Part shown: positions 9,923-32,000 of the stretch, piece by piece | How the letters are laid out: each line of letters opens with the position of its first letter | Position numbering within the stretch: the stretch's first letter is position 1 | Source of the DNA: Ignicoccus islandicus DSM 13165 | GTDB lineage: Archaea > Thermoproteota > Thermoprotei_A > Sulfolobales > Ignicoccaceae | Direction of reading: 5' to 3' | Assembly: GCF_001481685.1 (NCBI RefSeq) | Contig: NZ_CP006867.1 | Span: 180,001 to 212,000, forward strand | DNA: 32,000 bases | The notes under the pieces: model-generated | Databases searched by the model: none | What the model saw: the letters and a program-made list of their open reading frames with translations, nothing else | Told to the model about the DNA's origin: nothing | Made by a program: the position numbers and the translations under genes

Positions 9923-10250
9923 ATGATCATCAGAGTTCCCATGATCGCTTATTAACCCATCTAAGCTCCTTCTCATTGTAAAGATCGATCTTGAAAGGAC
10001 CGTGTACTGATGGTATAACCTCTGGATTGGTAAATCTTGTTTGGTTTTGCAAATACAATGCTAATTGATTGGATTAAAGTGGAATTAACCATTAGGAAGG
10101 CTAGTAGAAACTGAAGGTGCTTAAGGAGACCATTGTTTCTGAATTCAAATGGTTAAGGTTGAGGAAATAAGGGAATTTATTGTTAGTAAATGGAAAAACG
10201 AGTTTGGACAAGAGGTGGAGATGGGCATTCACCATCCCATGGTGAATAAA
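9923..10250 (+). repeat. copy A of a ~325-bp dispersed element (candidate conserved CRISPR leader segment or MITE/IS remnant)
   Basis: Hand alignment to the reverse complement of 31676-32000 gives about 36 mismatches, no indels, and a 67-nt perfectly identical core (10104-10170). It lies 160 nt from the leader-proximal CRISPR repeat. Confidence 0.85.
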
Positions 10251-10374
10251 TCTGGAATGGAAACTTAGCAACACTTAAGCAACATTCACTTTTATGAGAA
10301 GTAAAACTTGGGCGTGGAATTGGAAGTAAAATTATCTTCAGATAAGAGATTCTATCTTAAAAATATAATGTTAC

Positions 10375-10872
10375 CTAATTTAACTTCTCCCTAAGCGCTC
10401 TCCAAGTTTCGTTGAGGGCCTCCGGAAGCACCTTCGTGTGACCAATGGTTAACATGAAGTTGGCATCGCCCACCCATCTAGGAACTAGGTGTAAGTGAAC
10501 GTGTCCTGGAATCCCAGCTCCTGCTGCCCTGCCCACGTTCCAACCCACGTTAAAGCCATCCGGTGAGTAGAGCTCCCTCAAGGCTCTCATAACTCTCTTC
10601 GTTACTTGCATGGCTTCCAATAGTTCGTTATCACTCAATTCCTCTAAAGATGAAACGTGCCTGTAAGGAACGATCATGACGTGACCGGTATTATAAGGGA
10701 AGGCATTGAGCATTACGAAGTTGTATTGACCGCGATAAACTATCAAGGCCTCCTCGTCATCCATTTCTTGGACCTTACAGAATAGACAGCCCTTCGGTTT
10801 CTCCTCCTTAACTACGCTCTTTATATATTCCATTCTCCACGGAGTCCATAAGACGTCGAACGGTCTCTCCAC
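10375..10872 (-). CDS. HIT (histidine triad) family nucleotide hydrolase/transferase
   Basis: Histidine triad GHVHLHLVPR, plus the N-terminal WTPWRMEYI block seen in the HIT subfamily. Confidence 0.88.
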   Translation of the reverse strand: MERPFDVLWTPWRMEYIKSVVKEEKPKGCLFCKVQEMDDEEALIVYRGQYNFVMLNAFPYNTGHVMIVPYRHVSSLEELSDNELLEAMQVTKRVMRALRELYSPDGFNVGWNVGRAAGAGIPGHVHLHLVPRWVGDANFMLTIGHTKVLPEALNETWRALREKLN

Positions 10873-10961
10873 GTAGCGCTCACCGTTTAGCCGTCGAAAG
10901 TACCGTAATTACGCTATTGTTTATAGTCCATTTCATTGTAGCAAAAGGGGTGTCGAAACGA

Positions 10962-12554
10962 ATGACCGCTGTAGTGAGAAGGGAGCAATACAGGGGAATG
11001 GGGGCAGCGGAGTTCTTCTACCGAAACAAAGAGATAGCGGGATTCGGCAACCCTGTCAGAGCCATTTATCAGACCATAAGGGAGCTCGTGGAGAACTCGC
11101 TGGACGCAACGGAAGTACACGGCATACTTCCGAGAATAACGATCCAAGTAGAGGAAGTGGATAAAGAGAAGGGCGTGTATAGAGTTATAGTGGACGATAA
11201 CGGAATAGGAATTCCACCCGATAAGGCCCCATATGCTTTCGGAAGGGTACTTTACAGTTCCAAGTACGTTGCCAGACAGACCAGGGGAATGTACGGGTTA
11301 GGCGTAAAGATGGCCGTACTCTATGGTCAAATGACCACGGGAAAGCCTACTGTAGTTATCACCTCTCCGATGGGGTATTCGAAGAGCTACAAGTTCAAGG
11401 TAAAGGTAGGCGTTAAAACTAACGAACCAGAGGTACTGGAGAGGAGCGAGGCCTTCAAGAGCGCTAAGTGGCACGGCACCCGAGTAATAATAGAATTAGA
11501 GGCCGATTGGAGGAGAGCTCGTAACAAGGTCCTAGAATACGTTAAGAGGACGGCAATAGTGTCGCCTTACGCAGACATAACGCTAGTGACGCCGGAAGGT
11601 CTCTTAATAAGGTATCCGAGAACTACGACCAAGCTCCCACGCCCACCCAAGGAGGTCAAGCCCCATCCGAAGGGCGTTGACGTGGAAATGATGAAACAAC
11701 TAATAGATAAGACAACCGCTAAGAGCCTAGTTCAGTTCCTAGTAAGCGAGTTCCAGAGCATAGGCCCCAAGACGGCTCAAACCCTCGTAAGCATGGCTCA
11801 CCTAGACCCCTCCATGAACCCGAAGGCGCTAACTGATTCCCAAATAAAGGCCCTAGTTGACGCCTTCAGGGAATACCCGAGGTTCAAGCCGCCTAGTGCG
11901 GAGGCCCTTTCACCAATTGGAGAAGAGTTAATTAAGATAGGTTTGAGAAGCGTACTGAAGCCCGAGTTCGTGGAAGCCGTTACTAGAAGGCCCTCGGCCT
12001 ACGAAGGGCACCCCTTCATTGTCGAAGTGGGTATCGCTTACGGAGGAGAAATACCACCGAGCGATGCGCCGATACTCTATAGGTATGCCAACAAAATACC
12101 TCTATTATATGACGAGAAGAGCGACGTAGCTTGGAAGGTAGTTGGTGAAAGCATAGACTGGAGCAACTACAAGGTAACCTTCCCAGCGCCCTTAGTAGTT
12201 CTGACTCACATAGCTAGCACGAAGATACCTTACAAGGGCGTAGGTAAGGAGAGCGTGGCCGATATACCGGAAATTGAGAAAGAACTGAAGCTCGCCGTCC
12301 AAGAGGTAGCTAGGAAATTGAAGGCGTACCTCACGAAGAAGGAGAAGGAAGAGGAGGTTCAGAAGAGGGTAGTAACCCTCATGAAGTACGTTCCAGAAGT
12401 ATCTAGGAGCTTATCGATATTGAGTATAGATCCAAAGAGGAGGAAACCGAAGGTGGAGGAAAAGGTTATCGAGGAGAAGCTGAAGGAAGTAATAGCGAAG
12501 AAACTTGGCTTGAGGAAGGAGGAACTGCCGGAGGTAGTGGTGGAAATAGAGTAA
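10962..12554 (+). CDS. top6B: DNA topoisomerase VI subunit B
   Basis: GHKL ATPase boxes ELVENSLDA, DNGIGI and GMYGLGVK. N-terminal ...EQYRGMGAAEFFYRNKEIAGF is typical of Top6B. The ORF track begins at 10917; ATG 10962 is preferred. Confidence 0.92.
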   Translation: MTAVVRREQYRGMGAAEFFYRNKEIAGFGNPVRAIYQTIRELVENSLDATEVHGILPRITIQVEEVDKEKGVYRVIVDDNGIGIPPDKAPYAFGRVLYSSKYVARQTRGMYGLGVKMAVLYGQMTTGKPTVVITSPMGYSKSYKFKVKVGVKTNEPEVLERSEAFKSAKWHGTRVIIELEADWRRARNKVLEYVKRTAIVSPYADITLVTPEGLLIRYPRTTTKLPRPPKEVKPHPKGVDVEMMKQLIDKTTAKSLVQFLVSEFQSIGPKTAQTLVSMAHLDPSMNPKALTDSQIKALVDAFREYPRFKPPSAEALSPIGEELIKIGLRSVLKPEFVEAVTRRPSAYEGHPFIVEVGIAYGGEIPPSDAPILYRYANKIPLLYDEKSDVAWKVVGESIDWSNYKVTFPAPLVVLTHIASTKIPYKGVGKESVADIPEIEKELKLAVQEVARKLKAYLTKKEKEEEVQKRVVTLMKYVPEVSRSLSILSIDPKRRKPKVEEKVIEEKLKEVIAKKLGLRKEELPEVVVEIE

Positions 12555-30979: not shown

Positions 30980-31016
30980 CTCCTCATCGTTCAGCGTTTG
31001 CACCCTTCCTCATCGC

Positions 31017-31604
31017 TTACTTCATTATTTCCGAAAGTATTTCGACAGCGCTCTCCCTTATCATTGCGACTCCCAGACCAGCTAGCAATATTGCGATTAT
31101 TCTCGAAAGGGCCGTTATTCCGTTTTTACCAAGCACCTTGTAGATAACTTCTCCGTATCTCAACATCGGGATTGAGATAGCCATTACTATTAGTACGGCT
31201 ACGCTTGTGCATATTGGTCCACAGACGGAACGATAGTACAAAACCAAGCTTATGGCACCAGGACCAGCGAGCATTGGAATGGCCATGGGCACTATAGCTA
31301 TGCTTTCTGGGTCTATCATTTGCGCCTCAGTTTGGCCCAAGAGCGCTTGTATGGAGTAAACTAATAGAATCAAGCCGGTAGCCATTCTAACGTCAGTCAG
31401 ATTCATTCCAAAGGGCTTTACTATGTAATCGCCTAGAATTGAGAAAACTAACAAGACTATTGTTGCTACTATTACGCTTTTCGTTATTATTCTCTTCCTC
31501 ACGTTACTGGGCAAGTGAGAAGTCATGCTATGAAATATTGGACCGTTTGTTAAAGGATCTATTATTACAAATAGAGCAATTACCAAGTTCAAGATTTCGT
31601 CCAT
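31017..31604 (-). CDS. MarC-family (UPF0056) integral membrane protein
   Basis: Six hydrophobic segments and the N-terminal IDPLTNGPIF motif typical of MarC family proteins. Confidence 0.8.
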   Translation of the reverse strand: MDEILNLVIALFVIIDPLTNGPIFHSMTSHLPSNVRKRIITKSVIVATIVLLVFSILGDYIVKPFGMNLTDVRMATGLILLVYSIQALLGQTEAQMIDPESIAIVPMAIPMLAGPGAISLVLYYRSVCGPICTSVAVLIVMAISIPMLRYGEVIYKVLGKNGITALSRIIAILLAGLGVAMIRESAVEILSEIMK

Positions 31605-31675
31605 TCGATGCCCCTTCTACGAGCGTCATTTGTAGTTAATGTCGTTAGAGTTCCATGGACTTATTCATCTATCTC

Positions 31676-32000
31676 ATTCACCATCCGATGGTGAATGCCC
31701 ATCTCCACCTCTTGTCCAAATTCGATTTTCCATTTACTCACAATCAATTCCATTATTTCCTCAACCTTAACCATTTGAATTCAGAAACAATGGTCTCCTT
31801 AAGCACCTTCAGTTTCTACCAGACTTCCTAATGCTCAATTCCATTTCAACCCAATCATTCAACATTGTATTTGCGAAAACAAATGCAATTTACCACTCTT
31901 GAGCTTAGACCATTAGTACAAGGTCCTTTCAAGATCGATCTTTACAATGAGAAGTTGCATTGAGGGGTTAATAAGCGATCATGAGAACTCTGATGATCAT
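31676..32000 (-). repeat. copy B (inverted) of the ~325-bp element; truncated by the window edge
   Basis: The reverse complement aligns base-for-base with 9923-10250 (about 89% identity by hand count). The alignment is still running when the window ends. Confidence 0.85.

Follow-up and report, generated by a model that had tools for sequence, protein, structure and literature searches.

A 32,000-nt stretch of the genome of Ignicoccus islandicus DSM 13165 (NZ_CP006867.1, positions 180,001 to 212,000; called here the window, with positions counted from its first nucleotide) contains a small CRISPR array. Beside the array, in non-coding DNA, lies one arm of a long inverted repeat whose other arm runs into the right-hand end of the window. 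The array, designated array A, occupies positions 9392 to 9762 on the minus strand and is built of six repeats, each 26 nt long, with five spacers of 36-51 nt between them. The repeat consensus reads CTTTCTATTCCCTATTGGGATTCTAC on the plus strand and GTAGAATCCCAATAGGGAATAGAAAG in its transcribed-strand form. The four leader-adjacent repeats are perfect, and the two at the left (trailer) end have 7 mismatches each. On the minus strand, which carries the canonical form, the repeat ends in ...AATAGAAAG; a ...GAAAG repeat end is typical of crenarchaeal type I/III repeats. Both this canonical ...GAAAG 3' end, which is read on the minus strand, and the position of the degenerate repeats at the left place the leader to the right of array A. 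Weak matches to the Rfam family CRISPR-DR17 were obtained at the four perfect repeats (26 bits, which is under the gathering score). Searches with the repeat gave 0 matches in metagenome contig and viral contig collections, and a 70-aa open reading frame (ORF) that runs through the array, used as a query for other arrays or leaders, yielded no candidate.

On the leader side of the array, the sequence from 9763 to 10374 is continuously non-coding. The leader-proximal 160 nt of this region (9763-9922, minus strand) have a G+C content of 41.9%, and their partner next to the second arm would fall beyond the end of the window. The transcribed strand of this part contains two TATA-like boxes, TTAAAA at position -41 relative to the first repeat (9798-9803) and TTAAATA at position -18 (9774-9780), both of them consensus matches only. 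A perfect 14-nt palindrome, ACTTGAATTCAAGT, is found at 9851-9864. A scan for bacterial promoters and terminators was uninformative for this archaeon.

Extent and conserved parts of the inverted arms

A repeat search of the window located the two arms at 9923-10247 (arm A, minus strand) and 31676-32000 (arm B, plus strand), in inverted orientation and 21,428 nt apart, as an ungapped pair of 325 nt with 89% identity. BLAST of the pair gave 88.9% over 325 nt with 0 gaps and an E value of 2e-121. An earlier interpretation made from the letters of the window, referred to here as the sequence-only reading, had described ungapped inverted copies of about 325 bp with about 36 mismatches, and a direct count returned exactly 36, comprising 15 transitions and 21 transversions. 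This is the sole long inverted repeat of the window, the next longest being 32 nt at 75%. The G+C content of both arms is 37.8%, versus 46.1% for the window as a whole. Arm A spans positions -161 to -485 from the first repeat of array A, and, as had been proposed, it does adjoin a genuine CRISPR array on that array's leader side, with the perfect repeats adjoining the sequence from 9763 onward and the degenerate ones at the opposite end. Arm B is the same module pointing rightward out of the window, which cuts it, and this bears out the orientation previously given to it, with the equivalent outer end at or beyond 32000. It is located 71 nt upstream of a divergently oriented MarC-family gene (31017-31604, minus strand).

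The two limits of the arms differ in kind. The inner limit of similarity is at 10247, past which the flanks match no better than shuffled sequences do (448 of 1000 shuffles score as well). Copy A had originally been placed at 9923-10250; its start and its pairing hold, and its end was set 3 nt too far. The inner boundary is sharp and coincides with a perfect 9-bp hairpin. In arm A this hairpin occupies 10227-10247, with the stem and loop ATTCACCAT-CCC-ATGGTGAAT; in arm B it occupies 31676-31696 and has an identical stem, with the loop CGG instead of CCC. The outer limit, 9923, is the partner of window position 32000 and is hence censored by the end of the window. The distance of 160 nt that had been given between copy A and the leader-proximal repeat is arithmetically correct, the last repeat ending at 9762, and is nevertheless an artefact, because 9923 merely mirrors the window end. 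At this outer visible end of arm A there is also a direct repeat, CCCATGATC (9920-9946), with its copies 18 nt apart; the second copy pairs with the first as a 6-bp hairpin.

Three exact blocks, of 33, 67 and 34 nt, survive between the arms. The 67-nt block forms an invariant core, found at 10104-10170 (positions -342 to -408) in arm A and at 31753-31819 in arm B. Within this core, an AGAAAC...GTTTCT inverted repeat encloses two palindromes, CTTAAG and TGAATTCA. Given 36 randomly placed mismatches, a perfect run of 67 nt has a probability of about 0.005. The core and the terminal hairpin are likely to be protein-binding or otherwise constrained parts of a leader, for which the Csa3a sites of Sulfolobus leaders offer a known parallel; alternatively, the core may be a recent gene-conversion tract.

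Origin and function of the arms

Short-read assemblies bear on the outer limit that the window conceals. Logan contigs (k=31) from the ERR97657xx runs of PRJEB52977 were retrieved by exact-protein look-ups with MarC, HIT, OMP decarboxylase and four small ORFs of the arms, and these contigs are 100% identical to the window. The runs derive from defined mock communities of clonal DNA, in which the Ignicoccus strains are I. hospitalis (56.5% GC) and I. islandicus DSM 13165 (44.9% GC) (PMC9652401). Since the DNA is clonal, recurrent contig ends mark repeats rather than polymorphism. This logic is calibrated by the contig ends at 10206 and 31716, which fall exactly on 31-mers of the 34-nt block common to the two arms. 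Another contig end, at 9826 and thus 97 nt beyond the visible part of arm A, was recovered from at least 9 runs, and the 31-mer at this end has no second copy inside the window. On the simplest reading, the reproducibility of the 9826 end implies that an exact run of at least 30 nt starting from 9796/9797 is present at another locus. Had a newly acquired spacer been the cause, the break would be expected at about 9762-9767 instead. The other copy of the 9797 stretch would most economically be placed at 32096-32126, directly past the window. From this we infer a duplicated block of about 450-485 nt, whose array-side edge would come to within about 34 nt of the first repeat, so that the TATA-like box at -41 would belong to it. 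Such an extent fits a leader and does not suit an unrelated element that is simply a neighbor.

The explanation that we favor, with a probability of roughly 0.6, is that a single CRISPR leader of the I. islandicus genome, long, non-coding and A+T-rich, is present in the two arms as diverged (89% identical) copies, the term leader being used as it is reportedly defined by Jansen et al. in 2002. Arm A is most likely the distal part of a non-coding A+T-rich leader of array A about 485 nt in length, and this copy is demonstrably placed in front of that array. The TATA-like box at -41 would start transcription of the precursor CRISPR RNA just upstream of the array's opening repeat, and the mature CRISPR RNAs (crRNAs) of the array are predicted to carry the 5' tag AUAGAAAG; the crRNAs of N. 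equitans have a ATTGAAAG 5' tag (PMC3491384). Arm B would be the leader of a second array that reads outward. If arm B is a full leader, the first repeat of this array, GTAGAATCCCAATAGGGAATAGAAAG, should begin near 32161 on the plus strand. The two arrays would then be two of the genome's scattered arrays, and the 21.4 kb between them ordinary chromosome together with a defence island.

Several points weigh against a duplicated leader. The predicted second array would lie past 32000, outside the sequence that was read, and arm B is not seen attached to an array. The promoter motifs are matches at the level of a consensus. The best-conserved block is far from the array rather than at the leader-repeat junction, 485 nt would be long for a leader, and the abrupt inner boundary at a perfect palindrome would also suit a mobile or recombination-derived element. 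It should be noted, too, that the contig ends give indirect evidence: a third locus could hold the other copy of 9797-9827, or, with lower likelihood, that copy could be I. hospitalis DNA in the same mock samples.

Were no array to follow past 32000, arm B could be a solo or orphan leader, a remnant whose repeats were lost or never copied. Array A is itself tiny and is decaying at its distal end, and the arms are 11% diverged, so that the duplication is old; both observations are compatible with such a remnant. The persistence of the exact 33-, 67- and 34-nt blocks, the 67-nt one being non-random, instead suggests constraint or gene conversion acting in both copies, and the common block at 9797-9827 deduced from the contig ends covers the promoter-like box. 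We consider an orphan leader unlikely, although it takes up most of the probability that the favored explanation leaves. Distinctly less probable is a pair of leader-derived arms in which arm B has no array and which, with the invariant core and terminal hairpin under constraint, work as something other than leaders. They might for example be recombination substrates that flip the 21.4-kb segment, with its helicase-methylase-ATPase (Hma) island and TopoVI-B gene, or a regulator-binding or bidirectional promoter module that is also used by the divergent MarC gene.

In both copies an ATG-initiated ORF directly follows the 67-nt core (10149-10268 on the plus strand; 31661-31774 on the minus strand). 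Together with the non-random conservation of the core, these ORFs raise the prospect of an independent unit, either a small non-coding RNA or a gene for a protein of 37-39 aa, with its promoter in the core and reading away from the array. Over the 33 shared codons, however, 4 amino-acid-changing versus 2 silent substitutions make a neutral pattern, and the C-termini differ, with the similarity ending inside the ORF. No assembly on record calls the exact peptides of the small arm ORFs, and no ORF in the arms bears a Pfam domain. When the concatenated six-frame translation of both arms was compared with 5.8 billion protein clusters, nothing matched at E <= 10. The small-protein reading was rejected in view of the neutral-like substitutions, the diverging C-termini and the lack of a homologue. 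As to RNA, Rfam searches of the arms in gathering and E-value modes detected no family, with one chance match to a small nucleolar RNA (E 0.7), and a tRNA scan of them found none. The fold z-scores of the arms are -0.6 and -1.1, that is, they are as stable as shuffled sequences, and RNAalifold applied to the two copies found one compensatory pair per strand. These results led us to reject a structured RNA as well, and an independent unit of either sort appears highly improbable.

The sequence-only reading had itself offered an alternative to leaders, in which the copies are remnants of a miniature inverted-repeat transposable element (MITE) or an insertion sequence (IS). Such a non-autonomous mobile element or IS remnant would be beside array A by chance. 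The sharp inner boundary, ending in a perfect 9-bp palindrome, would be in keeping with this origin, and the outer end, with its terminus, is outside view. Positive evidence for it did not emerge. The arms lack a transposase-like ORF, and none of their frames shows similarity to a protein. The visible part of the element has no terminal inverted repeat; its inner end is self-palindromic and has no inverted match in 9763-9950. A third copy was absent from the 32-kb window and the flanking contigs. The 27-nt core had 0 matches in species-representative genomes, JGI metagenomes and IMG/VR, a search that did not reach the source genome beyond the window. The arms showed no phage or plasmid similarity, and a viral or mobile origin was set aside accordingly. 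Divergence of 11% with block-wise conservation is also unlike a recently active MITE family, and an outer limit about 34 nt from the first repeat, as deduced above, would have to be a coincidence. We give a mobile origin very little credence.

The segment between the arms

The segment bracketed by the arms (10248-31675; 21,428 nt) contains no cas genes among the ORFs scanned. Apart from the Hma island, it encodes a HIT hydrolase, topoisomerase VI subunit B (TopoVI-B), UbiD, a radical-SAM MqnC/CofH-like protein and a Clp1-like kinase, along with ribosomal protein L37ae, inorganic pyrophosphatase, an AIRS/ThiL-like protein and MarC. Searches of the large ORFs between and beside the arms with Pfam, NCBIfam and PADLOC likewise identified no cas gene, and the matches that carried a Cas label were only generic, reflecting the helicase, P-loop or HIT similarity of XPD, Clp1 and the SNF2 helicase. 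An XPD/Rad3-family helicase gene outside the segment (5778-7607) gave a strong PADLOC match to the model for type IV CRISPR-associated DinG, with an E value of 3e-54. As further components of a type IV system are absent, this most likely reflects family-level homology of a housekeeping XPD and not a cas gene.

The arms had previously been compared with the paired arrays of Sulfolobales, which flank a cas cassette and are transcribed outward. The part of that comparison that stands is the presence of housekeeping genes and a defence island between the arms; the layout itself does not, as no cas gene was found among the ORFs scanned. The analogy is in any case unnecessary, because scattered arrays with conserved leaders far from cas genes are documented, and arrays of this kind are common in hyperthermophilic archaea.

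The Hma defence island extends from 16682 to 26374. It consists of HmaB, a DUF1156 methyltransferase (16682-19642, minus strand); HmaC, a DUF499 ATPase (19793-23050, plus strand); an ORF of 141 aa without a family assignment (23047-23472); and HmaA, an SNF2 helicase whose C-terminal part is a NOV_C domain (23399-26374). With its listed TTG start, the HmaA helicase ORF shares 74 nt with the 141-aa ORF, and the true start of the helicase is probably further downstream. The G+C content of 16682-27062 is 44.8%, slightly under the window mean of 46.1%. The island is flanked by housekeeping genes and is about 7 kb and about 5 kb from the two leader copies.

The closest relative available for comparison is I. 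pacificus (CP006868.1, 1203421-1223984), whose MarC has 72% amino-acid identity to that of I. islandicus. Within 10 kb on each side of MarC in I. pacificus, no other gene of the window, no array and no leader-like element was found. Gene order in this region is thus not conserved within the genus, since I. pacificus shares only MarC with it.

Comparison with archaeal leaders

Leaders that recur within one genome have been described before. In M. jannaschii, a 'long repeat' is said to precede each short-repeat cluster, according to Bult et al. in 1996. The two arrays of N. equitans have leaders that are identical for 130 nt, with a transcription start site at -33 (PMC3491384). P. furiosus has seven active arrays, and CRISPR leaders co-evolve with the repeats and with Cas1 (PMC6698737). 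The leaders of the paired loci 1 and 2 of S. islandicus are identical and carry motifs for Csa3a binding at -130 to -103 and -79 to -53; leader families that include Csa3a sites occur in S. islandicus as well as in S. solfataricus (PMC5587795).

The Ignicoccus element resembles the leaders of scattered arrays in hyperthermophilic archaea in being a non-coding A+T-rich block of several hundred nucleotides that lies transcription-upstream and is repeated in the genome. As at those arrays, there are no adjacent cas genes, and TATA-like boxes occur a few tens of nucleotides before the first repeat. It differs from them in that only one copy is seen attached to an array and in that the best-conserved block, instead of adjoining the junction, is 342-408 nt away from the array. 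Many described leader pairs are identical, whereas the Ignicoccus copies are 11% diverged. With the paired loci of Sulfolobales the arms share two inverted leader copies reading outward, and the palindromic motifs could be regulator sites. Unlike those loci, the 21.4 kb between the arms has no cas gene that we could find, the spacing is several times larger, and no Csa3-type regulator or motif was identified here. Archaeal MITEs and IS remnants are similar in that they, too, are short non-coding repeats, sharply bounded and with a palindrome at the end; terminal inverted repeats, target duplications, a transposase and other copies, which would belong to such elements, were not seen in the sequence covered here.

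A duplicated CRISPR leader is an ordinary arrangement and presents no challenge to the current understanding of CRISPR loci. Its value here lies in annotation. It leads one to expect a further small CRISPR array immediately beyond the window. The leader that it delimits is unusually long, at about 485 nt, and has an invariant distal core that is a candidate regulator-binding site. The duplication also accounts for the breaks in short-read assemblies at three fixed points (9826, 10206 and 31716). Finally, the inverted arms are possible substrates for inversion of the 21-kb segment between them, as the sequence-only reading had suggested. Among the window ORFs scanned there was no integrase or invertase domain, and because the arms are long and diverged, such an event would proceed by homologous rather than site-specific recombination.

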